A stretch of 32,000 nucleotides of DNA from Longivirga aurantiaca (GTDB lineage: Bacteria > Actinomycetota > Actinomycetes > S36-B12 > CAIYMF01), in contig NZ_JBHSTI010000058.1 in NCBI RefSeq assembly GCF_042660085.1, positions 16,665 through 48,664 of the forward strand, given 5' to 3'. The notes beneath the pieces are model-generated. The model saw only the letters and a list, made by a program, of their open reading frames with translations. It searched no databases and was not told the origin of the DNA. The position numbers and the translations under genes were made by a program. Positions 7,699-23,282 of the stretch are shown piece after piece; the first letter of the stretch is position 1; every line of letters begins with the position of its first letter.

Positions 7699-7936
7699 CG
7701 CGGACGTAGGGGTTCTGCGCGGCCTGGCGGCTCCCAGAGGCGGATCCGGCTGGACCGCGGACGTCCGTTCCAGAGGCCCGAATCGCTGCACGCTCTGGCA
7801 AAGCAACGTGTGGAAGGTGCGGCCCGCCCGTGTGGCTGCGAGGAGCGATGCAGGGGCTGCCCCTGGAGAGGTGACGTTGTCAGCGTCACGGCGTCACGGC
7901 GTCACGCCGCTCGGCGTCCAGCACGACCGCGGGTCG

Positions 7937-8902
7937 TCAGGCCGATTCGATCTCGGGGAACACCCAGCCGCCGTCGAGGACCTCGGGTCTGGGTCGGTAG
8001 AGGCGCACGGTGTAGTTCCAGCCGTCCATGATCCGCAGACAGTTGGGGCGCCCGTCGCCGCAGCCGCCGAAGTGCACGACGACGGAGCCGTCGTCCTCCA
8101 CCTGCGCGGTGAACTGGTTCACGCTGCAGCCGCCTTCGTCGCTGGCCTCGAAGAAGCCGTCGGCGTTGTAGACGGAGAGGGACCAGAACGCGTCGACGGG
8201 CACGTCGCGGACCACGAGCCGGTACTCGCCGACGGGCAATCCGGGGTCGACGGTGAGGTAGTGGGCCTCGGTGTCGGGAAGGCCGCCCCACCCGATGGCT
8301 GTGCCGATGAGGTGCCGTACCGGGTCCACGTCGTCCTTGCGGCCGAACATGCCGGTCGCGCCGTCCACGGTCCGGCCCAGCGCGAGCAGTGCGGCCCGGA
8401 CGCTGTCGAAGGAGGCCTGGTCGTAGCTCGGCATGGCGAGCGGCACACTGGACGCCGCGACCACGCTCAGCCCGTCCTGGACGGCGTTCGCGGAAGCCAC
8501 GTCAGCGGCGTCGGCCGGGTCGGCCAGGACGCGCGCAACCAGGGTGACGTAGCGCGTGCCGTGGTCGGCCTGTTGGAGACGGTGCTGGCCGGCGTCGTGC
8601 AGCACCTGGTTGATGTAGTGGTCGGCGTTGACGACCGCGACGGACAGGTAGCGCCCGGAGCTGTCGGGGACGGTGACGGTGGCGCCGTCGGCGAGGTCGA
8701 CGACGGCGAAGCTGTAGAGGGTGTCGCGGTTCATCCGGACGACGGTCTGCTGGTCCAGCGGCGTGGGGACCCGGACGTGGTGGAAGCGGTTGATGCCGCC
8801 ACCGCCGGCCATCAGGTTGGTCATCATCCGGGCGGTCTCGGCCGCGACGAAGTTGTCGACGCTGACCTTGATCGCGGCGCCCGCTGGTGTGGTCACGACC
8901 AC
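7937..8902 (-). CDS. DUF1254/DUF1214 domain-containing protein
   Basis: 321 aa. DUF1254-like [13 protein letters not shown] and [35 protein letters not shown]1214-like [18 protein letters not shown] and [13 protein letters not shown]. The GTG start overlaps the upstream gene by 10 nt. Confidence 0.8.
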
Positions 8903-9555
8903 GGGTCGAAGCTGCCGACGCCGTCGATGAGGCCCTGGTACATGTTCGCCAGGTCATCCGGAACGATGTTGGCGACCCCGTCGGTGGTGATCGCGAAGTC
9001 GCGGTCCAGCGTCACGGTGCGGTAGGTCCAGCCCTCCGGGAGGTCGAGGCGGTCTCCGAGCGTGGCCAGCCCGTCCACGGTGAGGTCGGGTGACTTGGCG
9101 TTGGTGTAGGTCTGCATCACCCAGGTGACGTCGTCGGGTGAGCGCAGCAGGTGGACCTGGCGCCCGGCATTGAACTCCCAGACGTTGGTGCGGTGGATCT
9201 GCTGGGGCTGGTACGCAAGGGACGACTGGTCCCGGGTCGGGTCGAAGCCGGCTGGCATGTGCATCTTGGCGAGCAGGTTGAAGTCGACGCCGCCGAGGGT
9301 GGCCGGCTCCCCGACGATGTCGATGGTCAGCGCGTCCATCAGCCAGAAGCGGCGCGGGTTCTTCCACACCAGGTCGCACCCGTACTCGACGCGCAGCTTG
9401 TCGACGTCGATCGCGGCGAACGCCTCGTCCGGGCACGGGCCTCGCCCTGTGGTGTTGTACACAAGAGCGTCGTAGCCACCGTCAGCCTCGGTGAGCAGGA
9501 AGATCTCACCCTGCGGATAGTCGTGCAGGCCCTCGACGCGGATTGTCTCAGTCAT
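8893..9555 (-). CDS. Hypothetical protein (no family recognised)
   Basis: 220-aa ORF with balanced, non-repetitive composition, unlike the Arg/Pro-rich artefact frames. It overlaps the start of the downstream DUF1254/1214 gene, which implies an operon. Confidence 0.7.
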
Positions 9556-9749
9556 GCCTGAACGCTACGCCGCTCCGTGGAGGCGATGCGCGCTCACGTC
9601 ACGATCCGAGCTCACCGCGATCTGCGCGTTGGGTGACGTGAGGTGCGCGCCATTCCGACTGCTGCTGCGCAACGCGCCATGCGCAGTCGTAGTGTCCGTT
9701 CGGGACGTGCATCCCCGTCCGCAGCTGACCTGAGTGGAGGCGGTGAGCG

Positions 9750-11471
9750 ATGCCCGCGCGAAGCCCGCTGCTGCTCGCATCGCTGCGCGGCTACCGCCGG
9801 CCGTGGTTGACCGCGGACCTGCTGGCCGGGATGTCGGTGTGGGCCGTGCTCGTGCCCGAGTCGCTGGCCTACGCGACCATCGCGGGCGTACCCCCGGTCG
9901 TCGGCTTGTACGCCGCCGTGCCGGCGCTCGTGCTCTACGCAGTGCTCGGGTCCTCCCGACACCTGGTCGTGGCGACCATGTCCGCCACCGCGGCCCTGTC
10001 CGCCAGTGTTGTCGCCGTCTATGCGCGCCCGGGCTCCGGGGACTACGTCGCGATCACGGCGATGCTGGCCATCGTCACGGGCGTGCTCGGCGTTGTCGCC
10101 GGGCTGTGCCGACTGGGGTTCCTCGCCACGTTCATCTCCGAGCCCGTGCTCCGGGGCTTCATCGTCGGTCTTGCGCTGACCATCATCGCCGGGCAGCTGC
10201 CCGCGCTGTTCGGAGTGCCCAAGGAGGCCGGCGACTTCTTCGAGCAGATGGCTGGCCTGCTAAGGCAGCTCGCCCACTCCAACGCCGCGACGCTCGGCGT
10301 CGGGCTCGTCAGCCTCGCAGTTGTGCTCGGCTGCCGGCTCTGGCTGCCACGGCTGCCCGGTTCGCTGATCGCGGTGCTGCTCGGCGTCGCCGCAGTGCCG
10401 CTGCTCGACCTCGTCGACCGCGGCGTGGCGATCGTCGGACCGATCCAGGCCGGTCTTCCCACCCTCGGAATCCCCAGCGGACACGGCCTGGCCGACTACC
10501 TCGGGCTGGTGTCGGCAGCCGCCGGCATCCTGCTCCTCGGCTTCGTCGAGGGCCTCGGACCCGCCAAGGCCTACGCCGCGCGGGAGGGCCTCGAGATCGA
10601 CGCGAACCGCGAGCTGATCGGGGTGGGCGCGGCCAACATCGGCGCCGGGATCACAGCGGGCATGGTCGTGAACGGCACACTGGCCAAGACCGCGGTCAAC
10701 GTCAACGCCGGAGCCAAGAGCCAGGTCTCCGGACTCACGGCCGCCTCGCTGACGATCATCACGCTGCTGTTCCTCACGGGCTTGTTCGAGAACCTGCCCG
10801 AGGCCACCCTCGCCGCCATCGTGATCGCCGCCGTCATCGAGCTGGTGAACATCCCGGCGCTCGTCCGGCTCTACCGCGTCTGGACCGGGCATCTGGGCCG
10901 GATCTACGGCTGGGCCGCCCGCGCCGACTTCATCGCCGCCCTCGCCGCGCTGCTCGGCGTGCTCGTCTTCGACACGCTGCCGGGCCTGTTCATCGGCATC
11001 GTGGTCTCGATCCTGCTGCTGCTCTACCGCGCGTCACGCCCGCAGGTGGCCACCCTTGCGAGCACCGCCACGACCGACGGCCGCGACCACATCTGGGTCG
11101 ATGCCGCACGCCACCCCGACCTCCCCGTCCGCGACGACGTCCTCGTCGTCCGCGTCGAGTCCGGGCTCTTCTTCGCCAATGCCGACAACGTCCGCACCGC
11201 CATCCGGGACCGCATCACGCCCACCACGACGGCTGTCGTCCTCGACGCCTCCACCACCCCGGCCATCGACGTGTCGGCCACCGAGATGCTCGCCCAGCTC
11301 GCCGGCGACCTGCGCCGCGACGGCATCGCACTGCTCATCGCGCACGGGATCGGCCAGGTCCGCGACGTCCTGCGACGTGCTGGTGCCGAGCAGGACGTCC
11401 TTCAAGCCCTGTACGACACCGTCGACGAGGCCGTCGCCGCGGCACCCCCCGAGCGCGTCCCAGGCACGTAG
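9750..11471 (+). CDS. SulP-family anion (sulfate/bicarbonate-type) transporter with C-terminal STAS domain
   Basis: 573 aa. N-terminal SulP signature region (LLAGMSVWAVLVPESLAYATIAGVPPVVGLYAA), multiple TM helices, and a C-terminal STAS-like region (VVRVESGLFFANADNV...VVLDASTTPAIDVSATEML). Confidence 0.9.
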   Translation: MPARSPLLLASLRGYRRPWLTADLLAGMSVWAVLVPESLAYATIAGVPPVVGLYAAVPALVLYAVLGSSRHLVVATMSATAALSASVVAVYARPGSGDYVAITAMLAIVTGVLGVVAGLCRLGFLATFISEPVLRGFIVGLALTIIAGQLPALFGVPKEAGDFFEQMAGLLRQLAHSNAATLGVGLVSLAVVLGCRLWLPRLPGSLIAVLLGVAAVPLLDLVDRGVAIVGPIQAGLPTLGIPSGHGLADYLGLVSAAAGILLLGFVEGLGPAKAYAAREGLEIDANRELIGVGAANIGAGITAGMVVNGTLAKTAVNVNAGAKSQVSGLTAASLTIITLLFLTGLFENLPEATLAAIVIAAVIELVNIPALVRLYRVWTGHLGRIYGWAARADFIAALAALLGVLVFDTLPGLFIGIVVSILLLLYRASRPQVATLASTATTDGRDHIWVDAARHPDLPVRDDVLVVRVESGLFFANADNVRTAIRDRITPTTTAVVLDASTTPAIDVSATEMLAQLAGDLRRDGIALLIAHGIGQVRDVLRRAGAEQDVLQALYDTVDEAVAAAPPERVPGT

Positions 11472-11736
11472 GACGACCGGGTGCCCGTCGACCGTCAGGT
11501 GCAGCGAGGCAGGGACTGTCTCCCGCCACGGTCGGCGGTCATGAGCTCGATGCTCGCAGGCTCGGACGACGGATCCGGGCCGTATCGCCAGCACCGAGCA
11601 CGGAGACACTCGCGCGGGATTGCACCGGACGAGTGCGCGATCGGTGCCGTCGCCGCGGGTGAGGTTCGTGAGCCTTCCTGACGGAGGGCCCGCGACAACC
11701 GGACGTCCCCGACCCGGACGGGACGGGGCTTCGAGC

Positions 11737-11783
11737 GGAGCGGGTGACGGGAATCGAACCCGCACTGTCAGCTTGGGAAGCTG
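11737..11783 (-). other. 3' fragment of tRNA-Gly(CCC) (anticodon arm to acceptor 3' strand), the att junction of the integrated element and not a functional tRNA
   Basis: The minus strand reads CAGC-TTCCCAA-GCTGA-CAGT-GCGGG-TTCGATT-CCCGT-CACCCGC-T-CC. The 26-30 nt where the 5' acceptor strand (GCGGGTG) and D arm should be (11784-11812) are unrelated sequence. Confidence 0.75.
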
Positions 11784-11905
11784 TAGGCAGGCTGGACTTG
11801 TAGGGTGCTGACCTGCAGTTATACACATCTGCGATCCTTGCGTGGGCTACACGTGGGCTAACCTAAGGGCGAGTAGAGGTGCTCGTCAGACCCTGAGGGG
11901 GCGAG

Positions 11906-13111
11906 GTGGCGACAACGGCGGGGGCCGCCAAGCGGAAGAGATCGTCGGCCTTCGGGACGGTAGAGCAACTGCCGTCCGGGAGGTTCCGAGTCCGTTGGCA
12001 AGACGACAACGGACGTCGTGTCACCGCACCGCACACCTTCGCGACCAAGTCGGACGCGCGGCGCTACCTCGCCACGGTGGAGGCCGATCGCATCCGCGGG
12101 ACCCTCGGAGCCCGACGGCAGGTCAGCGAAAACTTGAGCACCTACGGGAGCGCCTGGATCGCACAGAGGCCGCAGATCAAAGACTCCACCCGCCACCAAT
12201 ACGACATCGACTTCCGGCTTCACATCGAGCCGTTGCTCGGCCAGCTTCGCCTCATCGAGATCGACGCGGAGGCTGTGCGCCGCTGGCACGCGGATGAGTC
12301 ACTCAGGCTGCGGGAGGAACTGGCTGGATCGGGACGGTCCGGCGCGGCAACCGTCGCGCGTGCGTACCGGCTGCTCAGGTCCATCCTGCAGACGGCAGTC
12401 GACGACGAGATCCTCGGTCGAAACCCGTGCCGGATCTCAGGCGGCGGAGACGCCCGTTCGACGGAGCGGCCGGTCCTCTCCGCTGAGGAGATCGGGTGGT
12501 TGGCCGAAGCGGTGCCCGGGCGGTACCGAGCCTTCGTGCTCGTCGCTGGTTTCACCGGACTGCGCGCCGGCGAGATTGCGGCTTTGCGCATTGCCGACCT
12601 CAACCTGCGATCCGGCAAGGGGAGCGTCACGGTGAATCGTCGCTTCTATCGCGTCGGAGGTGCCATCACCGTCGACACTCCCAAATCGCGGGTCGGTGCC
12701 CGCGTGGTTGCACTTCCGACCTTCGTCGCCACGGAGCTGCGTGCTCACCTCAATGCCTACAGGCCCAGCGCGGATGGTGCTGATCTGGTCTTTGTCACAG
12801 CCGGAGGCCGCGACGTCATCGACGGCTACTCCCAGGTGCTGCGCCGGGGCCTCAACCGAATCGGCCGCAGCGACGCGCGAGCGCACGACCTCCGTCATTC
12901 GGCGTTGACGTCCGCAGCCGAGCACGGGGCGACCCTGGCAACGCTGATGCAGATGGCCGGGCACTCGACGCCGGCGGCGGCGCAGCGGTACCAGCATGCG
13001 ACGCTCGAGCACGCGCGTCGAGTGGCCGCGGCGATGGACAAATCGGCAGCGGGATTCGTCTCGCGTAGCGGGAGCAAGAGCAAGGCTTCAGGACCCGCCG
13101 ACAGCACCTGA
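11906..13111 (+). CDS. int: Tyrosine recombinase / phage-type integrase
   Basis: 401 aa. N-terminal arm-binding style domain (FGTVEQLPSGRFRVRWQDDNGRRV). Catalytic motifs GLRAGEIAALR (Arg), HDLRHSALT (His-x-x-Arg) and GHSTPAAAQRYQH (Tyr). GTG start preceded by GAGGGGG. Confidence 0.9.
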   Translation: MATTAGAAKRKRSSAFGTVEQLPSGRFRVRWQDDNGRRVTAPHTFATKSDARRYLATVEADRIRGTLGARRQVSENLSTYGSAWIAQRPQIKDSTRHQYDIDFRLHIEPLLGQLRLIEIDAEAVRRWHADESLRLREELAGSGRSGAATVARAYRLLRSILQTAVDDEILGRNPCRISGGGDARSTERPVLSAEEIGWLAEAVPGRYRAFVLVAGFTGLRAGEIAALRIADLNLRSGKGSVTVNRRFYRVGGAITVDTPKSRVGARVVALPTFVATELRAHLNAYRPSADGADLVFVTAGGRDVIDGYSQVLRRGLNRIGRSDARAHDLRHSALTSAAEHGATLATLMQMAGHSTPAAAQRYQHATLEHARRVAAAMDKSAAGFVSRSGSKSKASGPADST

Positions 13112-13333
13112 TGGCTCGACAGTCCCCGCAGCGATGAAGGCGTCCAGATCTCTCCGGTCGATCCTGACGTACCTCCCGATCTTGTAGAACCGGATGCGAC
13201 GCTCGGCGACGAGCCGTCGAACGAATCGCACCGGCGTGCCCAGTGCTAGCGCGGCTGTCTCGACGTCCAGAAGCGCGTCGGACGTCGTCGCATCACGCGC
13301 CCTGGTCTCCACGTTCGGCACGTCGCCTCCCAC
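13088..13333 (-). CDS. xis: Excisionase-family (MerR/HTH_17-like) DNA-binding protein
   Basis: LLDVETAALALGTPVRFVRRLVAERRIRFYKIGRYVRIDRRDLDAFI is the typical excisionase-family HTH pattern. It is convergent with int and the 3' ends overlap by 24 nt. The start may be an internal GTG. Confidence 0.75.
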   Translation of the reverse strand: MGGDVPNVETRARDATTSDALLDVETAALALGTPVRFVRRLVAERRIRFYKIGRYVRIDRRDLDAFIAAGTVEPSGAVGGS

Positions 13334-13679
13334 TCAAGCGGTCTGCATCAAGATGCGCGGTCGAGTGACTCGAGCGGTGACCGACGTGTCCAGATAGCGA
13401 GCCTGGTCGACGAACTTACGGCGGTGCTTGCAGCGCGCGCCGAGGTTCCTAGCAATTCGGCGTTGCGCACGTGCACCCAGCTGCAGAGAACCGCGGTGGC
13501 CACCCACCCAACCTGCGGCCAATTCCCCGCAGGTGGGCGACGGGACCGACCGGCTGTGGCTCGACAGGAGCCCTCGCACATCTTCATGCGACGGCGTGTT
13601 GTCCCCAACCTCGTCCACCGCCGCTGGGTGCGCGCTCGCCGTAGGTGGACTCTTCCCGCTGGCCTAAAGGAGGCATCGC

Positions 13680-14063
13680 ATGACTGCACTGGATTCGTCG
13701 GCTCCAGTTCGGCTCTGGGGGGCTCTGGCGTCCAGCCTGACGGAGCTGTATCGCCGCACGTTGACCGCGTCGGCGATGCGGGACGACACCGAGGCCATCG
13801 TGGTGGCGATCGGCCTGCGGGAGGCGCTGGAACGCATCGCCGACCTGACGGCGCCCGACCCAGGCTCGCCGCTTCCCGTGGCGACCTCCGGCGACTCGAG
13901 CCACGACGCGGGCAGGTGGGTGCGAGGCGGACGAGTGGCGATCACGGAGCTGCTCGCTGTCCCCGTCGTGCATGACGTCGCGCCGACGGACCTGCTTTTG
14001 CTGGCCCGGGTGGCGCACCTGCTAGGGCGGGCGGAGGACGTCCTGGCCGAGGCCGCGGCGTGA
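13680..14063 (+). CDS. Hypothetical protein (island orphan 1)
   Basis: 127 aa. ATG preceded by a strong AAAGGAGG at 13666-13673. The stop overlaps the next start (GTGA at 14060-14063). Confidence 0.6.
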   Translation: MTALDSSAPVRLWGALASSLTELYRRTLTASAMRDDTEAIVVAIGLREALERIADLTAPDPGSPLPVATSGDSSHDAGRWVRGGRVAITELLAVPVVHDVAPTDLLLLARVAHLLGRAEDVLAEAAA

Positions 14064-15442
14064 CAACCCCAGCTTCAGCGGGTGCCACCTACGGGGAGCT
14101 CATGCACGCTGCGACCCGGCATGTCGCGTGGGCGGCGATGACCGTGAGCACCGAACGCTTCTCCGACCGTGCCGCAGCGTTCAGCGCCCTCGACGCTCAT
14201 CGCGCGGTGCTGGTGGCCGCGGGCGGGCATCTGCTGTTCCTGGCTGGCGGGCTGCACCGTGGCGAAGGGCTGGTGTCGGCGCCGGACCAGTCGGACCGGC
14301 CTGCGTTGGCGCTGGCCCGGGCACTGCAATCGCTGCAGGCCCGCGACGTGGCCGACCGAGATCAGGGCCGTGGCGGGCCGGCGCAGTCCTGGGTCGCTGC
14401 CGTGAAGGCATTGGGCGCGGCCCGGGACCTGGTCGCCACACACCGGGATGCCCGGGGCGCGGACCGCACCCCGGACGCTGGCGTCTTGGACGACGGCGCC
14501 GAACGCGCAGCCGGGTACCTGCTGGTCGCCGACCTCGTCGACACGGTCGCCGCTGCAGACCGTGACCTGGCGCTGCGCGCCGCCCAGGCCGGCATCGCAT
14601 GGTCGAAGGTCGAACGCGCGATGCCCGGCCTGACCCGGGTGAGTGAGGCAGTGCGGGTGCTGCGCATGCAGGCCGCCTACCCCGCCTCGGGCGCTGCTCG
14701 CCTCGCCCGCCTCCCCTTGGCCCGGCCGGGCGTCACCTCGCCCACGCCAGCCGGTGCGCTGCTGCAACGCACCGACCGGCTGCGTCTCGGGGCCTGGACG
14801 CTGGCGCGGCATCCGCGGCGCGCCAACGCTGCGGACCTGGTCGAGTACGCCGCAGCAGCGGCCATCCTGCACACCCACCTCGCTGCGCACGCTTCCGCCC
14901 TGGAGGATCCCGCCCTGGCCGGGGCGTGGTCGCAGCAGCGCACGGCTTGGGTCGACCAGCACCGACTGCTCGCCAGGTTCACCAGCGGCACCCCCGCGAC
15001 CCTGGGCTTGCGGGCCGACGTCGCGGCGCTGCCCGCCTCCGCGGCGATCGCCCTTCCTCTGACTCGTGACGCCGCCGGGATTCGCGCCTTCGGCGCGGCG
15101 CAGCTCAGCCCCGCGCTGATGCTGGAGCTATCCGCAGCCTGCACCGATCTCGCGGTCACGAACCAGACGACGCTGCGCGCCCTGCTCGATCGGGACGCTC
15201 TGTTCATTGATGCCCGCTACCTGACCGGCGACCAGGTCACCGACCACACCGACCTGATCGAGGCCAAGATGGCCGGGCGGTACGTCCCCGCCGCTGCAAG
15301 CGACTTGGCGCCCGCCCTCGCCGGCTACACATCGCTCGCCGCAGCCCAGCCCACCGCATCAACCTTCCCGCCGGACAGGGCTCCCGCCGATCGCCTGGCA
15401 GCGACCAGACGCGTCGACCGACCCACCCTCGAGCGCACGTGA
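14060..15442 (+). CDS. Hypothetical Ala-rich protein (island orphan 2)
   Basis: 460 aa, translationally coupled to the preceding ORF. No motif recognised. It is the longest frame here, and the opposing frames are Arg/Pro/Gly-rich artefacts. Confidence 0.6.
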   Translation: MTTPASAGATYGELMHAATRHVAWAAMTVSTERFSDRAAAFSALDAHRAVLVAAGGHLLFLAGGLHRGEGLVSAPDQSDRPALALARALQSLQARDVADRDQGRGGPAQSWVAAVKALGAARDLVATHRDARGADRTPDAGVLDDGAERAAGYLLVADLVDTVAAADRDLALRAAQAGIAWSKVERAMPGLTRVSEAVRVLRMQAAYPASGAARLARLPLARPGVTSPTPAGALLQRTDRLRLGAWTLARHPRRANAADLVEYAAAAAILHTHLAAHASALEDPALAGAWSQQRTAWVDQHRLLARFTSGTPATLGLRADVAALPASAAIALPLTRDAAGIRAFGAAQLSPALMLELSAACTDLAVTNQTTLRALLDRDALFIDARYLTGDQVTDHTDLIEAKMAGRYVPAAASDLAPALAGYTSLAAAQPTASTFPPDRAPADRLAATRRVDRPTLERT

Positions 15443-15472
15443 CCGGCTCGCCGACTTCCGGCGAGCCCGTCA

Positions 15473-15814
15473 CCGACTCCGTCACGAGCACGAACCGACT
15501 CCGTCACGAGCAGGTGCGGACTCCGTCACCGACTCCGTCACCGGCGTCAAGGGCCGCCATCGCCGCAGGTCAGGGCGCTACCGAAGTTCGCGACGGAGTC
15601 CATGACGGAGTCGGCCACCACGCTTGCCACACACCGGATACATCGCAGAGGAGGTCGCCGTGGCTACCCAGCACATCCTCGATGTTGAGCCCCGGTCTGG
15701 CGGTCGCCGGCTCCGACCTGGACTCCGTCATCGACTCCGTCTCGAAACTAATCGGTCGGTCGAGAGGCGGTTCCTTCCTCGGAAGTCGCCCGCGACGGAG
15801 TCCATGACGGACCC
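15473..15814. repeat. Array of at least 10 copies of the 10-bp motif GACTCCGTCA in both orientations (iteron/operator-like)
   Basis: Forward copies: 15475-84, 15497-506, 15519-28, 15531-40, 15721-30, 15733-42 (9/10). Reverse copies (TGACGGAGTC): 15591-600 (9/10), 15603-12, 15793-802 (9/10), 15805-14 (8/10). See findings. Confidence 0.85.
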
Positions 15815-15863
15815 CCTCACAACGCTGGCCCTGCCATCGACCAACCCGATGCAGGAGGACCAC

Positions 15864-16751
15864 ATGACCCCCATCACGACCCTGGATCACGCCCGCCCCG
15901 CGGGTGAGCCCACCGCGGTCCTGGACCGCACCCGCATGAGCCTGCTGGCGTACCTGGACCTCGTCGACGTCCACGGCTGGGATGGCCCTGCCGGCTGCGC
16001 ACTGCTCTCGTACGTCCGCGACACAGTGGTGCGTCCCCAGGTCTCCTACCGCGGTCTGACCGGCCCCGTCGCCGCACAGGCCGAGGCCACTGCATGGACG
16101 ATGACGTGGCGAACGCTGACCTCCCCCCGGATCCGGGATGCCGAGTCGCCCTGGGGGATCCTGTGGTCCGCCGCGCGCCGGGCGATCGAGGACGAGTCGA
16201 TCGCGGCCGCTTACGGCACCCAGCCGCGTAAGGCCTGGCAGCAGCGTGCGAGTCAGCGTCTCGCCGCCCGCAGTTCCGACCCGTGCCTTGTCAGCGTGTC
16301 GCTGCCGCCGTTGAGCTGGGAGCTCCTCTCCGAACATGGGCTGGAGCCCGCATCTAGCGTGGGCGGAGGGACTTGGGCGGCTGGCGACGCGCCGATCCTG
16401 ACCGCGGTGGTCGCGGTCTTGCTCGAGGCCGGTTGGCAGCTGGAGCCGGCCTCACGGGCGCTGCTGTCCGTCGCCGCCCGCAGTCGCCACCGCGGCGGCC
16501 GTCCGCACGTCCTGGGCGGGTACCGCGGGGTCGCAGCCGACGCGACGATCCCCGGCTGGCAGGCGCGCCGACTGGTGCACGTGCTCCTCGGCACCCAGCA
16601 GTGGCCCGGCCTCATTGAACGTCTGGCGGTACGGCCCGACCGGGGAGCGATCGACGCCGTCATGCACGCGGCCCTCCGAGCCACGCTCGACAAGACACTC
16701 ACGAGCCCAGACATGCTCATCCGCAACGCCACCCTTCAGGCCGCGTCGTGA
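15864..16751 (+). CDS. Hypothetical protein (island orphan 3)
   Basis: ATG 15864 is preceded by GGAGGA (15853-15858). The upstream part of the 375-aa ORF (from 15624) overlaps the repeat array and is probably non-coding. Confidence 0.6.
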   Translation: MTPITTLDHARPAGEPTAVLDRTRMSLLAYLDLVDVHGWDGPAGCALLSYVRDTVVRPQVSYRGLTGPVAAQAEATAWTMTWRTLTSPRIRDAESPWGILWSAARRAIEDESIAAAYGTQPRKAWQQRASQRLAARSSDPCLVSVSLPPLSWELLSEHGLEPASSVGGGTWAAGDAPILTAVVAVLLEAGWQLEPASRALLSVAARSRHRGGRPHVLGGYRGVAADATIPGWQARRLVHVLLGTQQWPGLIERLAVRPDRGAIDAVMHAALRATLDKTLTSPDMLIRNATLQAAS

Positions 16752-16930
16752 CCCGGCCCATGAGTCGCGCGGCGACCGGCCGTTCGAGGTCACTCGATCG
16801 AGTACACCCGGAGCGCGCGCTGTCCACAGGTTCCGGCGAACAGGGTGCCGCGCGTCAACGAGAGGGGGTACAAAGAGCGGATCGACGGGGGAACGTCCCG
16901 TCACACCGACGCAGCAAGGCGGTGGTGACG

Positions 16931-17503
16931 ATGATCAGCGGCCATGCCTGCCGCGCGGTGCTCGCAGCGCTACTCGGAGCCTTCGTCCTCGTCGGCTGCA
17001 CCGAAGCCCCGCAGGACCCGCTGCCTACGTCGTCGTCGCCCGGTACGCGACCGTCAGCGTCCTCGACCGCCCCGACGGTGTCGACTACGCCTACCGAGTC
17101 CGTTGAGGCACTCGCCGCTTACGACCGGTTCTGGGCGGCGAAGGTTGCGTCGCAGGCGGATCCGACCAAGCAGCCGCCGAAGGCCTTGCGCGCCAACGCC
17201 ATCGACAAGGCCTTGTCCGATGCTCTCGCGACGGTGCTCCTGCTGCGCCGCAATGGAGTGGAGATGCGCGGGGAGCCCGTTCACGAAACATCCGTGGTCT
17301 CAGTGACGGCTGGGGCGCGACCCGAGGTGGCCATCACGGACTGCCTGGACTCCACTGAATGGCTTCCCGTCGTCGTGGCGACCGGCGAGTCTGCGCTCGC
17401 CCCAGGCCAATCACCGCGCGTCGTTGTCGAGTCGGTGGCGACCATCTTCGATGGGCGCTGGGTCATCAAGACTTCGACTGCGTTCCGGGATCGCTCGTGC
17501 TGA
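16931..17503 (+). CDS. Putative lipoprotein
   Basis: MISGHACRAVLAALLGAFVLVGC has a lipobox (LVGC) and is followed by a Ser/Thr/Pro linker. An alternative coupled GTG start lies at 16748 (GTGA overlap with the upstream stop). Confidence 0.6.
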   Translation: MISGHACRAVLAALLGAFVLVGCTEAPQDPLPTSSSPGTRPSASSTAPTVSTTPTESVEALAAYDRFWAAKVASQADPTKQPPKALRANAIDKALSDALATVLLLRRNGVEMRGEPVHETSVVSVTAGARPEVAITDCLDSTEWLPVVVATGESALAPGQSPRVVVESVATIFDGRWVIKTSTAFRDRSC

Positions 17504-18451: not shown

Positions 18452-19135
18452 GTGACGACCACGAGCAGGTCGAGCACGGCACGTGCCGACGGGCCGACGC
18501 GGGCGATGCCGGTCGCTGCAGCGCTGCGCGCCCCACGGCCGCGGCGCCGCCCGGGGCTGCTGGCCCTGGGCGTGGCCCTGGTCGCGGTGGGAGCGCTCGC
18601 GGCTGCGTGGCTGGTGTCGACCAGCAGCGCCCGCGTCGCTGTGCTGGTCGCGGCGCGCGACGTTCCCTATGGGACGGTCCTGACCGACGCCGACCTGTCG
18701 ACCGTCGAGGTCTCCGGCACGAGCGGGGTCGCCGTCATCCCGGCGGGCGAGCGTGACCAGGTCGTGGGCCAGGTCGCTGCGACGACGATCGTGGCCGGGT
18801 CGCTGCTGGCGCCCGCGCAGCTCACCGACGCAGCACCCCCGAAGGCGGGGGAGGTCCTGGTCGGTGTTCCGCTCAAGGCGGACCGGCTGCCCGCCGGTGG
18901 TCTGACGCCGGGGGACCGGGTCCTCATCGTCGAGACCCCTGGCGTGGACGGCGACCCGCCGATCGGGCTGCCCGCGACTCTGGCGGCGACTGTCGTGCGG
19001 GTCGGCCCGGCTGACCTGAACGGGGTGTCGGTGCTCGACGTCACGGTCGCGGCCGGGGACGGTCCGGCGCTGGCCTCGCGGGCCGCGACCGGGCGCATCG
19101 CGCTGGTGCTGCTGCCGCGGGTGGCCGGGTCATGA
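18452..19135 (+). CDS. SAF-domain / CpaB(RcpC)-like Flp pilus assembly protein
   Basis: N-terminal TM (GLLALGVALVAVGALAAAWLV) followed by a SAF-like region (VLVAARDVPYGTVLTDADL). Its position is immediately upstream of the CpaE-like and CpaF genes. GGGAGGTGGGG lies before the GTG. Confidence 0.75.
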   Translation: MTTTSRSSTARADGPTRAMPVAAALRAPRPRRRPGLLALGVALVAVGALAAAWLVSTSSARVAVLVAARDVPYGTVLTDADLSTVEVSGTSGVAVIPAGERDQVVGQVAATTIVAGSLLAPAQLTDAAPPKAGEVLVGVPLKADRLPAGGLTPGDRVLIVETPGVDGDPPIGLPATLAATVVRVGPADLNGVSVLDVTVAAGDGPALASRAATGRIALVLLPRVAGS

Positions 19136-19968
19136 CCGTGATCGCGGTGTGTTCGGCCAAGGGTGCGCCCGGGGCGACCACCACCGCGCTGGCCCTGGCC
19201 CTGGCCTGGCCGCTGAACGGGGGCTCGGTGCTTCTGGTCGACGCCGACCCGGCCGGCGCGGATCTGGCCTCGGGCTACCTACAGGGCGCGACCGGGCCGG
19301 GCGCCGGAGCCGGCGCCGTCGCGACGGCACGCAGCGACCTGCTCGACGCGGTCCACGGTTCCGCGGTCGCGCTCGACGCGACCGGGTCCCGGCTCCTGCT
19401 CGCCGGGCCCGCACCGTTCCCGCCGACCAGGCCTGGTGCGGCCCCGGCCTGGTCGCGGCTGCGCGACCTCGACAGCACAGGCGAGGGGAGCTGGTCGGTC
19501 CTCGTCGACCTCGGACGACTGCCTGCCGGCGCTGACGCATCGCTGCTGGCGGCCGCGGACCTCGTGGTGCTCGTGACCGGGTCGTCGTTGCGCGCGGTCG
19601 CGGCAGCACGCCCCGCCGCGAAGGCGATGCGCACAGCCGAGCCGGCACACTCGTCGTCGCCGCGGGGGTGGCTGCTGGTCGTCGGGGAGCGACGCCCGTA
19701 CCCGGCCGATGAGGTCGCATCCTCCCTGGGGCTGCCGCTGCTCGGATCGCTGGCCTGGGATCCGCGGGCGGCGGCGGTGCTCAGCGACGGCGCGCCTGCC
19801 GGGCGGTGGTTCGCCCGCACCGCGCTGATGCGTTCCGCGACCGCAGTGACCGCTCGGCTCCGCGACAGCGCCGAGCGTCGCACGCCGTTGTCCGCCCCGA
19901 CGTCCGACGAGTCGCTGCTGCACACCTCCGTAACGGCCCCCGACGCGGCGACGGTGGTGGGCTCGTGA
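19132..19968 (+). CDS. ParA/MinD/CpaE-like protein with degenerate P-loop
   Basis: MTVIAVCSAKGAPGATTTALALALA aligns to the deviant Walker A xKGGxGK[ST]T, but the P-loop Lys is replaced (KGAPGATT). LLVDADPAG is Walker A'-like. ATGA overlap upstream and GTGA overlap downstream. Confidence 0.7.
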   Translation: MTVIAVCSAKGAPGATTTALALALAWPLNGGSVLLVDADPAGADLASGYLQGATGPGAGAGAVATARSDLLDAVHGSAVALDATGSRLLLAGPAPFPPTRPGAAPAWSRLRDLDSTGEGSWSVLVDLGRLPAGADASLLAAADLVVLVTGSSLRAVAAARPAAKAMRTAEPAHSSSPRGWLLVVGERRPYPADEVASSLGLPLLGSLAWDPRAAAVLSDGAPAGRWFARTALMRSATAVTARLRDSAERRTPLSAPTSDESLLHTSVTAPDAATVVGS

Positions 19969-21425
19969 CCGAGCAGCTGCGCGCCGGGCAGGTCGACGAC
20001 CTCGACGCCCCCGCGCTTCACGCGTGGCCCGAACCCGAACCGCCCGCAGCCGACCCGGGCGTCGGGTTGTCCGTCGATCACGGGCTGGTCCGTGAGCTGC
20101 GCCGCGAGGCCGCCGAACGCCTCGCCGCCCGCCTGCAGGCGAACCCGCTGACAGACGCGACGGCCCGCCAGGAGCTGTGCCGCTCCCTGCTCGCCGATGT
20201 CCTAACGGCCCGGTCCCGCGACGCGGCCCGCGCGGGCGCCCCGGGGTGGAGCGTGGAGGAGGAGTTCGCGCTCGCCGACGCGGTCATGTCGGCGCTGTTC
20301 GGCCTGGGACGGCTGCAGCCGCTGGTCGACGACCCGATGGTGGAGAACATCGAGGTCAACGGCCACGACCAGGTCTGGGTGTCCTATGCGGATGGCCGGG
20401 AGGAGCGCGGTCCCGCCGTTGCGGACTCCGACGCCGAGCTCCTCGAGCAGCTCCAGCACCTGGCCGCTCGGGTGGCGGGCAACGAACGCACGTTCACCAC
20501 TGCGAACCCGCGCTTGCACCTGCGCCTGGAGGACGGGTCCCGGCTGGCGGCGATGGCGTGGACGACACCGCGCCCTCAGGTGGTGGTGCGCCGCCACCGG
20601 GTCCGCGACGTCGACCTTGACGACCTCATCGCCCTCGGGATGCTGGACACCGCGCTGGTCGCGTTCCTGCGCGCGGCGCTGCGGTCGGGGAAGAACATCA
20701 TCGTCACCGGGCTGCAGAACGCGGGCAAGACCACGTTGATCCGGGCGTTGGCCAACGAGTTCGACCCGATGGAGCGGTTCGCGACGATCGAGCGGGAGTA
20801 CGAGCTGCACCTGCACGAGCTCCCCGACCGGCACCCCCGGGTGGTGGCGATGGAGGCCCGCGAGGGGTCCAGCGAACGCGACGCTTCGGGCCGCCGCGCG
20901 GGCGAGGTGACGCTGTCCGAGCTGGTGGTGGATGCGCTGCGGATGAACCTGCGCCGCATCATCGTCGGCGAGGTCCGCGGCAGCGAGGCCGTCCCGATGC
21001 TGGAGGCGATGTCGACCGGCGACGGGTCGCTGTGCACGATCCACTCCCGCACCGCCGCGCACGCCCTGGACCGCCTGGTCACCCTGTGCCTGTCCGCGGA
21101 CATCGGGATGACCGACACGTTCGCCTACCGCCTGGTCGCAGGCTCCGTGGACCTCATCGTCCACGCCCGGCTGCTAGACGAGACCCACATCGGGGGGCGG
21201 CGGCACCGGTTCGTGTCCGACATCGTGGAGATCAACGGGATGGGCGAGTTCGGCCGCCCCACCACCACGACCGTCTTCGCCCCCGGACCCGACGGGCGCG
21301 CCGCCCCCACCCACGCACCGGCATGCCTGCCGGAACTGATCAGAGCCGGGTTCGACCCCGGGTTCCTCGACCACCGCACCGGCACCTGGACCATGCCGCT
21401 GGACCTGGTCGGGGCACCGTCATGA
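19965..21425 (+). CDS. cpaF: TadA/CpaF-family secretion ATPase
   Basis: Walker A IIVTGLQNAGKTTLIRAL, Walker B/Asp box RRIIVGEVRGSEA, His box SLCTIHSRTA. About 486 aa from GTG 19965. Confidence 0.9.
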   Translation: MTEQLRAGQVDDLDAPALHAWPEPEPPAADPGVGLSVDHGLVRELRREAAERLAARLQANPLTDATARQELCRSLLADVLTARSRDAARAGAPGWSVEEEFALADAVMSALFGLGRLQPLVDDPMVENIEVNGHDQVWVSYADGREERGPAVADSDAELLEQLQHLAARVAGNERTFTTANPRLHLRLEDGSRLAAMAWTTPRPQVVVRRHRVRDVDLDDLIALGMLDTALVAFLRAALRSGKNIIVTGLQNAGKTTLIRALANEFDPMERFATIEREYELHLHELPDRHPRVVAMEAREGSSERDASGRRAGEVTLSELVVDALRMNLRRIIVGEVRGSEAVPMLEAMSTGDGSLCTIHSRTAAHALDRLVTLCLSADIGMTDTFAYRLVAGSVDLIVHARLLDETHIGGRRHRFVSDIVEINGMGEFGRPTTTTVFAPGPDGRAAPTHAPACLPELIRAGFDPGFLDHRTGTWTMPLDLVGAPS

Positions 21426-22336
21426 CCGCCGTCCTGGCCGCGGTCACCGGCGCGATCCTTGTCGCCGGATTGCTGCTGGTAGTCGCCGGGCTGTTCCCCG
21501 CGCTCGCACCCGCACCGGTGCCGCGTCGCACTGCGACGACGCACCCGCGGCGGCTGCCGGCCGGGTCGACGGCGCGCGCCATCGTCGCGGTTCTGGGTGC
21601 GGCCGTGGCGTGGCTGGTCACCGGGTGGCCGGTCGCGGCGCTCATCGTCGCCGCAACCGTGTGGGGCCTGCCGATCCTGCTCGGGACCTCGACCGTCGCG
21701 GCCGCGGGTATCGACCGGATCGAGGCGCTGGAGGAATGGACGAGGCGCCTGTCCGACGTGCTGGTGGTCGGTGTCGGTCTCGAGCAGGGCATCGCCGCGA
21801 CCGTGCGCACCTGCCCGCAACGCCTGGAGGGCGAGGTGTCCGCGTTGGCGGCGCGGCTGGACGCGCGCTGGTCGACAGAGGCCGCGCTGCGCGCGTTCGC
21901 CGACGACCTCGACGACGCCACCGGCGATCTCGTCGTCGCGACGTTGATCCTGGGCGCCCGTCGTCGGGGCCCCGGCCTGGCACGGGTCCTGGCCGCGGTC
22001 GCGGACTCTGTCGCCGAGGAGGTCGCGATGCGCCGCCGGGTCGAGGCCGAGCGTGCCAAGCCCCGCACCACCGCCCGCGCGGTCACCGTCATCACCTTCG
22101 GCGTGGTCGCCGTCGGCGCGCTCAACGGCACCTACCTCGCCCCCTACGGCACCGTGCTCGGGCAGCTGGTGCTCGCGGTGATCGCGTGCGGGTTCATCGC
22201 CTCGCTGGCGTGGATGCGGGCGCTGACGTTGACCCGACCGCAGCCGCGGCTGTTCCAGCCCACCGGCTCGACGCGACTCGGCGACGCGGCAGGACTCACC
22301 AGCATGCCGGCCGTCGCTGTAAGGGGGGACTCGTGA
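21422..22336 (+). CDS. tadB: TadB-like (T2SS F family) pilus assembly membrane protein
   Basis: Polytopic membrane protein of 304 aa in the position immediately after CpaF. ATGA overlap at 21422-21425. Confidence 0.75.
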   Translation: MTAVLAAVTGAILVAGLLLVVAGLFPALAPAPVPRRTATTHPRRLPAGSTARAIVAVLGAAVAWLVTGWPVAALIVAATVWGLPILLGTSTVAAAGIDRIEALEEWTRRLSDVLVVGVGLEQGIAATVRTCPQRLEGEVSALAARLDARWSTEAALRAFADDLDDATGDLVVATLILGARRRGPGLARVLAAVADSVAEEVAMRRRVEAERAKPRTTARAVTVITFGVVAVGALNGTYLAPYGTVLGQLVLAVIACGFIASLAWMRALTLTRPQPRLFQPTGSTRLGDAAGLTSMPAVAVRGDS

Positions 22337-23220
22337 TCGACCCGTGGGTGATCGCCGCCGGCGCGAGCGTGGGCGCGGGTGTCGCGGTGCTGATCCGCGC
22401 CCTGGTCCCCGACGTCCCCGACCTCGCTGCGGCCCTGGCCCGCCTGGACACCGCCGATCCCGAACCCGTCGCCGTGGTCGGGGCGTCGCGGTGGCATCGC
22501 ACCAGCACCAGCGTCTTCACCGACCTCGGTGCCCGTCTGCACCTGGACCGCTACGCCCGCGACCTCGCCCTGCTCGGCGAGACCCCGGCGACGCTGGCGG
22601 CGCGCAAGACCGGCTACGCGCTGCTCGGGCTGGCGTTCCCGCCGGTCCTGCTCGCCGCGGTCGCGCTGCTGGGCATCGTGCCCCCGATCGTCGTGCCCGC
22701 GGCGGTGTCGCTGCTGCTGGCGGCGGTGCTGTTCTGGGTGCCCGACGCGGACCTGCGCCGCCGCGCGCAGACCGAGCGGGACGCGATGCGCCTGGCGGTG
22801 TGCGCCTACCTCGAGTTCGTCGCCCTCGAGCGCGCCGGCGACGCCGGCACCGTGCAGGCTCTCGAGCGCGCCGCCTGGGTCGCCGATGCGCCGGGGTTCG
22901 TGCGGATCCGCGACGCCCTGACCCGCGCCGAGCTCGCCGGGCGCCCGCCGTGGGACGCGCTCGGCGACCTCTCGGAGCAGGTCGGCGTCCCCGAGCTCGG
23001 TGACCTCGCCGACATCATGCGCCTGTCCGGCACCGACGGCGCCGCCGTCTACGCCACCTTGCGCGCCCGCGCCGCCTCGCTGCGCCACCAGCTGCTGGCC
23101 GCGTCCGCGGCGGAGGCGAACGCCGCAAGCGAGCACATGATCATCCCCGTCGCCCTGCTGGGCATCGCCTTCATGGCCCTGATCGGCTACCCCGCCTTCG
23201 CCCGGATCCTGTTCTCCTAG
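22333..23220 (+). CDS. tadC: TadC-like (T2SS F family) pilus assembly membrane protein
   Basis: 295 aa with TM segments at the N-terminus, the middle and the C-terminus. GTGA overlap with tadB (22333-22336). Confidence 0.75.
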   Translation: MIDPWVIAAGASVGAGVAVLIRALVPDVPDLAAALARLDTADPEPVAVVGASRWHRTSTSVFTDLGARLHLDRYARDLALLGETPATLAARKTGYALLGLAFPPVLLAAVALLGIVPPIVVPAAVSLLLAAVLFWVPDADLRRRAQTERDAMRLAVCAYLEFVALERAGDAGTVQALERAAWVADAPGFVRIRDALTRAELAGRPPWDALGDLSEQVGVPELGDLADIMRLSGTDGAAVYATLRARAASLRHQLLAASAAEANAASEHMIIPVALLGIAFMALIGYPAFARILFS

Positions 23221-23282
23221 AAACACGTCCCATCCCACCGTGCAACGCCCATGCACGCCGTACCGGACAGGAGCACCTCCCG

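Follow-up and report, generated by a model that had tools for sequence, protein, structure and literature searches.

Results

Two orphan genes precede a conserved Tad-pilus module

The window (the whole stretch of DNA analysed here, 32 kb in length) carries an island that has an integrase and adjoins a tRNA-Gly fragment; a scan of the window for tRNA genes returned none. An HTH_17-like protein is encoded on the minus strand at approximately 13088-13333, and is followed by a two-gene operon on the plus strand. The first gene of this operon (13680-14063), an open reading frame with high GC3, encodes an orphan protein of 127 aa that has no match in Pfam, NCBIfam or PHROG searches; syntenic counterparts of 118-138 aa are present in the homologous loci L001-L004 and L013-L018. 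The second (14060-15442) encodes an orphan 460-aa protein from a rare family with 17 homologues among 5.8 billion clusters. This family displays many invariant Arg, His, Asp and Trp positions and matches no Pfam, NCBIfam or PHROG family.

The array under study separates the 460-aa gene from the first gene of a conserved Tad/Flp-pilus module, in which every gene described here lies on the plus strand. In all clades the module begins with a gene for a two-domain helical protein (15864-16751), 295 aa in the window, whose family has 251 representatives. The AlphaFold2 model of this protein (mean pLDDT 82) returns a Foldseek top list composed mostly of sigma factors, including sigma-32, sigma-E (1or7, probability 0.72) and SigA, yet with E-values of 0.2-3, and no sigma family match was found in Pfam, in a PDB profile search or with hhalign. 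We describe the protein only tentatively, on the strength of its predicted structure, as sigma-70-family-like. The pilus genes themselves (18452-24857) match Pfam families for CpaB/SAF, TadZ-like, CpaF, TadB/C, Flp, TadE and TadG-like proteins, and their order is identical in L001, L003 and L019-L022. The only ParA/MinD-like gene (19132-19968) occupies the TadZ position of this pilus operon. The last gene of the module (24854-28237) encodes a membrane protein of 1127 aa, described below.

A dense array of short boxes in two orientations

The original prediction placed densely packed copies of a 10-bp motif here, and this array is real. There are seven exact copies of GACTCCGTCA in total, including those at 15475, 15497, 15519, 15531 and 15721 on the plus strand and 15603 on the minus strand, and three copies with one mismatch (15591, minus; 15733, plus; 15793, minus). 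A copy with two mismatches occupies 15805-15814 on the minus strand, and degenerate copies at 15463 and 15709 each lie 12 bp upstream of an exact one (15475 and 15721, respectively). The 8-mer core ACTCCGTC occurs ten times in the 32 kb, nine of them inside 15476-15801, against a mean of 2.4 (maximum 5) when the whole 32 kb is shuffled. Nor is the motif spread across the window: when the window was scanned with a position weight matrix trained on other loci only, the sole tandem pair with 12- or 22-bp spacing outside the array was a weak one inside a gene, at 5387-5420. A degenerate copy predicted at 16895-16904 is present and conserved in close relatives, but it is single.

Core-to-core spacing within the array is 12 or 22 bp. 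The distal forward copies (15463-15542, plus strand) run from the degenerate copy at 15463 to that at 15531 with successive spacings of 12, 22, 22 and 12 bp. They are followed by a conserved central block, GCAGGTCAGGGCGC (15565-15578, plus strand), and by reverse pair 1, CGCGACGGAGTCCATGACGGAGTC (15589-15612, minus strand), two copies 12 bp apart that form the promoter-proximal box of unit 1 and are centred 66 and 54 nt before a GTG codon at 15660. Unit 2 consists of forward copies at 15709-15742 (plus strand; 15709, 15721 and 15733) and reverse pair 2 (15791-15814, minus strand), its promoter-proximal box, centred 68 and 56 nt before the ATG at 15864. Reverse pair 2 is the only element of the array whose position is conserved in every locus. 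The geometry given in the original prediction holds throughout: its forward spacings (22, 22 and 12 bp) are correct, as are the direct repeat of 18 bp, the pair of 94-bp units and the 21-bp repeat whose copies lie 202 bp apart.

The array region has a G+C content of approximately 70%. At its upstream edge, a hairpin with a 15-bp stem and a 5-nt loop (15439-15473) overlaps the stop codon of the 460-aa gene. This inverted repeat is 93% complementary, is mostly invariant in close relatives, and holds the first degenerate motif copy in its right arm. It is probably a terminator lacking a T-run; a scan of the array region for intrinsic terminators returned nothing.

The two units resemble a duplicated translation start region

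The two 94-bp units had been read as conserved sites and not as a duplication. That view is open to doubt, since homology passes the reverse arms and takes in a ribosome-binding site and a start codon: similarity runs 40 nt beyond the reverse arms at 83%, and a Shine-Dalgarno sequence with a start codon lies at an equal distance after each unit. For unit 1 these are GAGGAGG and the GTG at 15660 (15648-15662, plus strand); for unit 2 they are GGAGGA and the ATG at 15864, the start of the sigma-like gene (15851-15866, plus strand). Judged from the sequence, the units look like a diverged tandem duplication of approximately 202 bp that includes ribosome-binding site and start codon.

The frame from GTG 15660 is open into the 295-aa reading frame. 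Variable sites after this GTG number 10, 10 and 19 at the three codon positions, a third-position excess that is weak and not significant. We favour ATG 15864 as the start of the 295-aa gene, given family-wide lengths of 285-305 aa. Unit 2 is not unambiguously intergenic, because it lies downstream of the in-frame GTG.

The array is conserved in fixed register with the downstream gene

The original prediction named two outcomes that would count against it, a motif scattered at large and homologous islands without an array here; as the motif is not spread across the window and homologous islands do keep an array, the test comes out in favour of function. The array is kept in all nine independent homologous loci with readable downstream DNA, across neighbouring-protein identities from 92% down to 43%. 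These loci are built alike, with forward TCCGTCRC copies in differing numbers, a conserved GCAGGTCA block and a pair of reverse copies. All TCCGTCA-type loci contain the central block, 22-25 nt ahead of the reverse pair. The distance from the last forward to the first reverse copy is 55-57 bp in most loci (69 in L001 and 89 in L003). Distal forward copies range from 0 to approximately 10 across clades, and among close relatives their number differs through indels of ~22 bp and ~34 bp; one of the two reverse copies in unit 1 of L014 is degenerate.

In every locus the gene-proximal pair is centred approximately 69 and 57 nt before the start codon (range 54-70). The centres fall at 69 and 57 nt in L001, L005, L013, L014, L015 and L017, at 70 and 58 nt in L002, and at 66 and 54 nt in L003. 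This fixed register of the proximal pair to the gene is a promoter-like geometry. The boxes also resist change: 8.9% of motif columns are variable, compared with 26.5% of other intergenic columns (Fisher p = 2.6e-4), and in the close clade none of the 14 columns of the central block varies. These comparisons indicate that the motif sites are under purifying selection and change at a third of the frequency seen in the intergenic DNA around them.

The 127-aa and 460-aa genes are missing from more distant loci, which come from Cellulomonas, Actinotalea and metagenomes. Here repeated boxes with a CGTCA-like core lie upstream of the same sigma-like gene, with a 12-bp-spaced pair 46-61 nt before its start. 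In L015, the upstream operon also has the motif in its divergent promoter region, an apparent second target as a regulon would show. The array accompanies the Tad module with or without an adjacent integrase. Related Tad and LysM-SARP modules reside on actinobacterial plasmids, and on a Streptomyces linear plasmid the neighbours of the Tad/LysM-SARP module include a Replic_Relax protein and a large ATP-binding protein. A search for a comparable array on a Streptomyces plasmid that bears a homologous module (LysM-SARP and Tad) found none, and a scan of viral contigs with the 18-mer GACGGAGTCCATGACGGA gave a single chance match inside an unrelated contig.

The module ends with a SARP-domain membrane protein

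According to the original prediction, no Rep, ParB or TraB protein would be recognisable on the element, with which our family scans agree, and the protein binding the array would have to be one of the orphans. The latter step is unnecessary. Recognisable DNA-binding domains do occur on the element, in the HTH_17-like protein and, with confidence, in a SARP-type domain at the end of the module. The 1127-aa protein encoded there comprises N-terminal transmembrane helices, two LysM domains matched by Pfam, a further transmembrane helix and a cytoplasmic C-terminus, and its homologues carry the source names SARP/AfsR. Residues 890-1127 (27521-28234; 238 residues) form an OmpR-type winged helix and a BTAD. 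In this region the Pfam BTAD score of 22.4 bits exceeds the cut-off (22.1), and the match to Trans_reg_C is weak (E = 0.04). The AlphaFold2 model of the domain (mean pLDDT 95, pTM 0.91) matches AfsR (8K60, 8HVR) and EmbR (2FEZ) over its full length in Foldseek, with E-values of 1e-7 to 1e-5 and TM-scores of 0.67-0.69. From this predicted structure we confidently assign residues 890-1127 as a SARP domain of the AfsR/EmbR type, and it is our preferred candidate for the array binder.

Two other groups of proteins were considered as binders and set aside. The small divergent HTH_17 protein was rejected in view of the 'MNR...LPPLVDVPTAARVLGIGR' orthologue, which is found in L001, L002, L014 and L015 and is missing from the window, where the array is intact. 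The downstream proteins of 190-250 aa and ~300 aa were rejected as signal or lipoprotein sequences are present in both.

A model for control of the Tad-pilus module

The array is most likely a promoter/operator at which an island-encoded DNA-binding regulator switches on the Tad-pilus cluster. With moderate confidence, we propose more specifically that it is a SARP-box-like promoter/operator of the first gene of this mobile module, with the SARP domain as the preferred putative binder. We infer that the sites are bound, and likewise which protein would bind them, where transcription would start and whether it would be activated or repressed.

In the proposed mechanism, a sequence-specific DNA-binding protein encoded by the module would occupy paired boxes of ~9 bp arranged head-to-tail, with the core TCCGTCR (the full box in the window's clade being GACTCCGTCA) and a spacing of 12 bp, or 22 bp among distal copies. 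The proximal pair as a whole is centred ~63 nt before the start codon; given a leader of ~30-33 nt, this positionally conserved pair just upstream of the gene would correspond to a SARP box near -30. The bound pair would then recruit or stabilise RNA polymerase on a promoter without good housekeeping -35 and -10 elements. A scan of the region for sigma-70 consensus promoters found none, which is consistent with an activator-dependent or alternative-sigma promoter, and inspection by eye of the position 8 bp past the proximal pair revealed no convincing -10 element. The upstream copies in the opposite orientation, whose number varies, may help as auxiliary operators, through cooperative loading, titration or repression. 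Binding by the cytoplasmic SARP domain would link a cell-wall signal to the sigma-like gene and thence to the pilus operon, and the apparent tandem duplication of boxes, ribosome-binding site and start codon in the window's clade would provide two promoters, possibly with long and short protein isoforms.

Discussion

The original reading of the array as a set of protein-binding sites holds in so far as an operator is the closest match and the sites are under selection; the iteron, centromere and clt versions of it are poorly supported because the array is locked to a start codon, is kept with or without an adjacent integrase, is 70% G+C, and has no Rep, ParB or TraB protein to serve it. That the array is an operator with a different binder from the module, either the 295-aa sigma-like protein acting through its C-terminal helix-turn-helix in autoregulation or one of the 127-aa and 460-aa orphans, is the alternative we take most seriously, while considering it unlikely. 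In all clades the array is immediately followed by the sigma-like gene, whose product is modelled with a helix-turn-helix-like C-terminal domain and has sigma factors as its best structural matches. However, lone sigma factors normally do not bind arrays of one repeated motif, and the sigma assignment is itself weak (Foldseek E-values as given above, hhalign not significant, Pfam without a match). The co-occurrence of TCCGTCA-type arrays with the 127-aa and 460-aa pair is perfect, clades without the pair using other motifs, and therefore either protein might take the place of the SARP domain as binder; the many Arg, His and Trp positions that are invariant in the 460-aa protein point the same way. 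Against this, neither orphan matches a known DNA-binding family, and repeat boxes remain in the clades that lack both genes. A site for plasmid-like maintenance or transfer of the excised island, of the iteron, centromere or clt/oriT type, is very improbable in our judgement. Iterons and centromeres are likewise short bidirectional repeats with 22-bp spacings, this island has an integrase and a tRNA-Gly fragment alongside, related modules occur on actinobacterial plasmids (one beside Replic_Relax and the ATP-binding protein), and a membrane-anchored DNA-binding domain could hold DNA at the pilus machine. Yet the conserved module encodes no Rep, ParB, TraB/FtsK or relaxase: searches of Pfam, NCBIfam and PHROGs assign no Rep initiator to any neighbouring open reading frame, and family scans find no ParB, ParR or ribbon-helix-helix protein. 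Its only ParA-like protein is the pilus TadZ. Further, the array stands in fixed register with the start codon and was apparently duplicated along with it and the ribosome-binding site, no A+T-rich unwinding region interrupts its ~70% G+C, and L003 and L014 retain it without an adjacent integrase.

Two further readings carry very little weight with us. The attP sites of lambda and L5 have arm-type sites arranged around a core, and the direct copies, conserved block of ~14 bp and inverted copies of the array resemble such an attP, as though they were arm-type sites of the island's tyrosine integrase/excisionase; the 8-mer GCAGGTCA of the central block is also found beside tRNA-fragment att sites in the window (11809-11816) and in L001, L005, L006 and L020. 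There is, however, no extended similarity between att region and array, and 49 of 300 shuffles score equally well. The window has a different int/xis cassette from L005, because homology between the two starts only at 13576, yet their motif and array are identical; moreover, the array lies 2.4 kb from int, internal to the integrated element, and the arrays of L003 and L014 have no integrase next to them. We find it equally hard to credit that the inverted copies act in RNA, whether as an attenuator, a processing site or a long leader hairpin. Pairing between forward and reverse copies is feasible (the predicted fold of 15455-15625 has an MFE of -76.5 kcal/mol and a z-score of -2.9), and arms I4 and I7 are 88-90% complementary, but a hairpin has no need for extra direct copies of variable number, the unit 1 reverse pair of L014 lacks a forward partner, the arms in L003 lie 89 nt apart, positions between the cores in L002 show no co-variation between arms, and an Rfam scan of 11500-16000 returned no match.

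A reading that goes beyond an operator, in which the array is a docking platform of many sites where the membrane-anchored SARP domain tethers island DNA to the Tad-pilus machine, so that it would be recognised in cis, in the manner of a clt or DUS site, when the pilus exports or takes up the island, strikes us as very improbable. Three observations are compatible with tethering: every occurrence of the module is on an integrative island or a plasmid, Replic_Relax and a large ATP-binding protein are joined to it on Streptomyces linear plasmids, and DNA uptake in Micrococcus luteus is mediated by Tad pili (PMC4322843). If it were true, it would represent a previously undescribed pilus-linked route of DNA transfer in Actinomycetota.

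Taken alone, the array is a fairly ordinary promoter/operator, and the surrounding module carries most of the interest. If the model of a SARP-controlled operator holds, the module would contain a self-contained control circuit for a mobile Tad pilus that is widespread on islands and plasmids of Actinomycetota, in which a wall-facing LysM membrane protein binds an unusually large array of 12-bp period before a divergent sigma-like gene. SARP regulators would then extend beyond antibiotic clusters and beyond soluble proteins. Such a circuit would also offer a testable handle on the switching of actinobacterial Tad pili, including those of naturally transformable Micrococcus, and a defined DNA target for three protein families currently without annotation.

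Several known systems resemble parts of this arrangement. In parC/ParR of plasmid R1 and the omega-protein heptad arrays of pSM19035, many short repeats, direct as well as inverted, flank or overlap a promoter, are bound cooperatively and mediate transcriptional autoregulation, and the same arrays double as centromeres with a ParM or ParA partner. By contrast, family scans recognise no partition ATPase or ribbon-helix-helix protein in the conserved module, and the period and motif of its array are unrelated to theirs. The clt/TraB repeats of Streptomyces and plasmid iterons are likewise clusters of 8-10-bp repeats on mobile elements, here too in a high-G+C actinobacterium; the present array differs in lacking TraB/FtsK or Rep, in being locked to a start codon, and in being conserved with a pilus operon instead of transfer or replication genes. 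Like ToxR and CadC, which bind direct repeats at promoters, the 1127-aa protein is a transmembrane protein with an OmpR-family DNA-binding domain, and the best PDB sequence match of its winged-helix part is CadC, with a weak E-value of 0.46. In ToxR and CadC, however, the DNA-binding domain is N-terminal and has no BTAD, whereas the winged helix of the 1127-aa protein is C-terminal, is followed by a BTAD, and comes after an uncharacterised cytoplasmic domain of 370 residues.

The SARP operators of Streptomyces (AfsR, ActII-ORF4, DnrI and PimR) share with the array a tandem arrangement of a short conserved core and a less conserved spacer. SARP operators consist of direct repeats 11 or 22 bp apart that are bound by two protomers side by side, and 8 bp separate the SARP box, which overlaps the -35 region, from the -10 element (PMC10936776); a SARP promoter can combine a main and a secondary operator that are bound cooperatively (PMC5930380). 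Compared with the published 11 or 22 bp, the 12- and 22-bp spacings of the array also amount to approximately one or two helical turns; the distal 22-bp spacing fits SARP periodicity, and the 12-bp pairs of all loci are one base off 11. As in SARP systems, a SARP-domain protein is encoded in the same cluster and the presumed target promoter lacks good -35 and -10 elements. Unlike the SARP operators described, which have one orientation, copies in the array face each other across a conserved 14-bp block, number up to approximately 12, and belong to a unit that is duplicated as a whole. The usual SARP is a soluble protein with an N-terminal SARP domain, whereas the regulator presumed here, 1127 aa long and membrane-bound, has its LysM domains outside the cell and its SARP domain at the C-terminus, and its target would be a pilus and sigma-like operon in place of the antibiotic gene clusters that SARPs control.

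Geometry of the repeat array

The sequence at 15473-15814 of the window, between the genes for the 460-aa and 295-aa proteins, is a repeat array with copies in both orientations, and when we re-read the sequence and recounted the copies it matched the original prediction. A motif search of the window places seven exact and three one-mismatch copies of GACTCCGTCA within 15475-15802; outside the array, the whole 32 kb holds two one-mismatch matches only, at 1457 and 16653. The 8-mer core ACTCCGTC occurs ten times in the window, nine of them inside the array, compared with an average of 2.4, and never more than 5, in a shuffle control. Following the register yields a further two-mismatch copy (15805-15814, minus strand) and two degenerate copies, one 12 bp ahead of 15475 and the other 12 bp ahead of 15721. 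Forward copies are spaced 12, 22, 22 and 12 bp apart, and each reverse pair 12 bp; in both 94-bp units (unit 1, 15519-15612; unit 2, 15721-15814), 57 bp run from the last forward to the first reverse copy. A weight matrix trained on loci other than the window confines tandem pairs to the array, bar one weak intragenic pair.

The same prediction held that the two units share conserved sites and are not a duplication; the second half of this claim is contested, as similarity extends 40 nt past the reverse arms at 83%. Unit 1 is followed by GAGGAGG-GTG (15648-15662) and unit 2, at the same distance, by GGAGGA-ATG (15853-15866), in which GGAGGA lies five bases upstream of the plus-strand 295-aa gene start, ATG 15864. 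From the two copies of the unit 1 reverse pair to GTG 15660 the distances are 66 and 54 nt, the register to the true start in other loci; this GTG shares its reading frame with the 295-aa ORF and has a strong Shine-Dalgarno sequence. Initiation there could yield a 363-aa isoform; a codon-position test of the extension (10, 10 and 19 variable sites) is suggestive at most. The extension (15660-15863) would comprise 68 Arg-rich residues, partly encoded by the unit 2 repeat boxes. Members of the 295-aa family span 285-305 aa, and gene callers disagree on the start of this tentatively sigma-like gene in relatives (295-388 aa). L014, a homologous locus of another clade, likewise has two units.

Island setting

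The window, from a high-G+C actinobacterium (65-80% G+C), has as its closest genome records metagenome-assembled genomes labelled Actinomycetota and Candidatus Nanopelagicales. The 3' half of a tRNA-Gly(CCC) gene, anticodon stem to acceptor end, lies on the minus strand at 11737-11784, ~120 bp ahead of the integrase gene; across the whole window, ARAGORN detected no complete tRNA. This fragment is probably an att-site remnant at the island's left end, which would put the right end and the intact tRNA past 32000. After it come a tyrosine integrase (11906-13111) and an excisionase-like HTH_17 protein (~13088-13333, minus strand). A long plus-strand block is headed by orphan genes of 127 aa and 460 aa and continues with the array, the 295-aa gene, a lipoprotein, a secreted protein, the full set of Tad/Flp pilus genes (CpaB, TadZ-like, CpaF, TadB/C, Flp, TadE/G) and, last, a 1127-aa LysM protein (24854-28237).

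Relative to the homologous locus L005, the int/xis cassette (window 11906-13575) is exchanged, between relatives with 92% identity over the module; other relatives have different integrases, or none adjoining the module. The sequence GCACATCT is conserved ~100 nt before the 127-aa gene (window 13576-13583; L005 ~9510; L015 ~1868; L002 ~7122) and in the window marks the exact point where homology to L005 begins. It probably serves the 127-aa/460-aa operon as a promoter element, and it marks where the conserved module begins on the left.

Conservation of the array in homologous loci

The 460-aa family is rare, with 17 clusters among 5.8 billion. We compared contigs carrying members with identities between 92% and 43%: synteny is kept in all contigs fetched, and the array stands at the same place in every locus with readable downstream DNA. 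The shared layout begins with zero to ~10 forward copies of TCCGTC(A/G)C at 12- or 22-bp spacing, followed by a conserved central block, GCAGGTCA(G/A)(G/A)(G/C)C (window 15565-15578), two reverse CGCGACGGAnnnnnTGACGGA copies 22-25 nt past it (one of them degenerate in L014 unit 1), a short conserved TGCCTGAGGA, which is CTCACAACGCT in the window's clade, and then a Shine-Dalgarno sequence and start codon. Measured back from the start codon, the gene-proximal pair centres at 69/57 nt in L001, L005, L013, L014, L015 and L017, at 70/58 nt in L002, 66/54 nt in L003 and 68/56 nt in the window. Among five close relatives, 8.9% of motif columns vary versus 26.5% of other intergenic columns (Fisher p = 2.6e-4), and the central block shows zero variation; distal forward copy number differs among close relatives through ~22-bp and 34-bp indels. 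A generic repeat, or one missing from homologous islands, had been named as the outcome that would speak against function; because the array is kept in place and its motif columns are less variable, the comparison favours a functional element. We conclude that the array is real and functional. In L015, four GACTCCGTCA-type copies form a second cluster (1661-1769), in the divergent region between the small HTH and 127-aa genes; this cluster is missing from the window.

The 295-aa family is wider, with 251 representatives at 50% identity, including Cellulomonas and Actinotalea isolates. In these and two further metagenomic loci, the homologue still heads a Tad module, without the 127-aa and 460-aa genes. 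All four upstream regions carry repeated boxes in both orientations: L021 (CCGTCATCGA, five times) and L020 (GCGTCATCG, four times), each with a pair spaced 12 bp lying 46-61 nt before the start codon, L022 (GCGTCAG) and L019 (TGATCGAT). Since boxes precede the homologue where the 127-aa and 460-aa genes are missing, the element, on this comparison of sequences, belongs to the module's first promoter region, and its box sequence drifts between clades.

Past the sigma-like gene, (T)GTCCACAG is conserved in all clades (window 16821-16829; just past the stop in L002 and L019-L022). It resembles the actinobacterial DnaA-box consensus TTGTCCACA and may be part of the lipoprotein/Tad operon promoter. 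In metagenomic relatives (L002, L003, L021 and L022), the flanks of the Tad module hold defence systems, among them Wadjet/Mks, type I restriction enzyme, ORC/Cdc6-like plus PRTase and TIR/Thoeris-like genes, DndB-family genes with those for 7-deazaguanine (queuosine-type) biosynthesis, and hypermodified-base genes.

Candidate binding proteins

The strongest lead for a binder is the 1127-aa LysM protein. Its sequence suggests N-terminal transmembrane helices, two extracellular LysM domains, a further transmembrane helix around residue 510 and, on the cytoplasmic side, a C-terminal part made up of a ~370-residue unknown domain and a C-terminal SARP domain, a membrane-anchored SARP architecture. 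In Pfam, the final 238 residues match BTAD, and Trans_reg_C weakly, and their homologues carry source names of SARP/AfsR regulators. The model of this region (mean pLDDT 95, pTM 0.91) superposes full-length on the AfsR SARP domain in RNA polymerase complexes (8K60, 8HVR) and also on EmbR (2FEZ), with E-values of 1e-7 to 1e-5 and TM 0.67-0.69. By tblastn, the region has hits in 221 plasmid records from actinobacteria (Streptomyces, Rhodococcus, Micrococcus, Cutibacterium); among the matches listed (12 of 221), all are from Streptomyces, with the gene annotated just 'LysM peptidoglycan-binding domain-containing protein'.

The 295-aa protein had no match by the sequence methods applied (Pfam, a PDB profile search and hhalign). 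Its model has two helical domains (mean pLDDT 82) and its Foldseek list is mostly sigma factors, at E-values of only 0.2-3; we tentatively regard it as sigma-like. Other candidates were set aside: the small divergent HTH_17 protein, conserved in L001, L002, L014 and L015, is absent from the window, whose homology to its nearest relative begins only at 13576, and the two proteins following the 295-aa gene are both exported.

Alternative readings of the array

Several points speak against replication iterons, a centromere or a clt site: no Rep, ParB or TraB was found by the family scans, the array region is G+C-rich, and the array keeps a fixed register to a start codon with which it has been duplicated. 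Integrase arm sites draw some support from the 8-mer GCAGGTCA, which recurs beside tRNA-fragment att sites at three independent loci; against them, an identical motif is retained with different or absent integrases, and similarity between the att region and the array is not significant. This 8-mer, the core of the central block, lies ~10-45 nt from the tRNA-fragment att sites in flanks without extended similarity (window 11809-11816, minus strand; L001 8753; L005 8847; L006 8856; L020 1185, minus, and 1289, plus). The region also folds well (z = -2.9), as an RNA hairpin would, but three things count against selection for pairing: there are extra direct copies, L014 unit 1 has lost its forward copies, and positions outside the core do not co-vary.

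The main live alternative is a different binder, either the sigma-like 295-aa protein or the 127-aa or 460-aa protein. Counting this jointly with binding by a SARP domain, the array is very probably a transcriptional control region of some kind. We prefer, with rather less assurance, a promoter/operator for the mobile Tad module under a SARP domain; that the module's own SARP domain is specifically the binder is a tentative proposal, at slightly under even chances.

Comparison with SARP operators

SARPs bind to direct repeats that are 11 or 22 bp apart, with 8 bp between the 3' repeat and the -10 element; two protomers sit side by side on a 22-bp box centred at -29.5 in promoters with poor -35/-10 elements (PMC10936776). 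PimR binds a triplet main and a doublet secondary operator cooperatively (PMC5930380). The array agrees with these descriptions in several respects. In its region, no sigma-70 consensus promoter was detectable, which is in keeping with them; a misfit is that no clear -10 element was seen. The gene-proximal pair centres ~63 nt before the start codon; were this box centred near -30, the leader would be ~33 nt long and carry the ribosome-binding site.

A comparable array was sought at the homologous module on the Streptomyces albidoflavus linear plasmid NZ_CP109595.1 and none was found, a further misfit with the SARP reading. There (1556-17133), the Tad and LysM-SARP module is preceded by a 719-aa ATP/GTP-binding protein and a Replic_Relax (PF13814) protein, in the places taken elsewhere by the 460-aa gene and the sigma-like gene; these neighbours hint at a possible link between the module and the processing or transfer of DNA on plasmids.

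The surrounding module, with its sigma-like first gene, Tad genes and membrane LysM-SARP protein, is more novel than the array, which is itself a variant of an already known element type. The array resembles SARP operators in the 22-bp spacing of its distal copies; unlike them, its pairs have a period of 12 rather than 11 bp and its forward copies face the opposite way.
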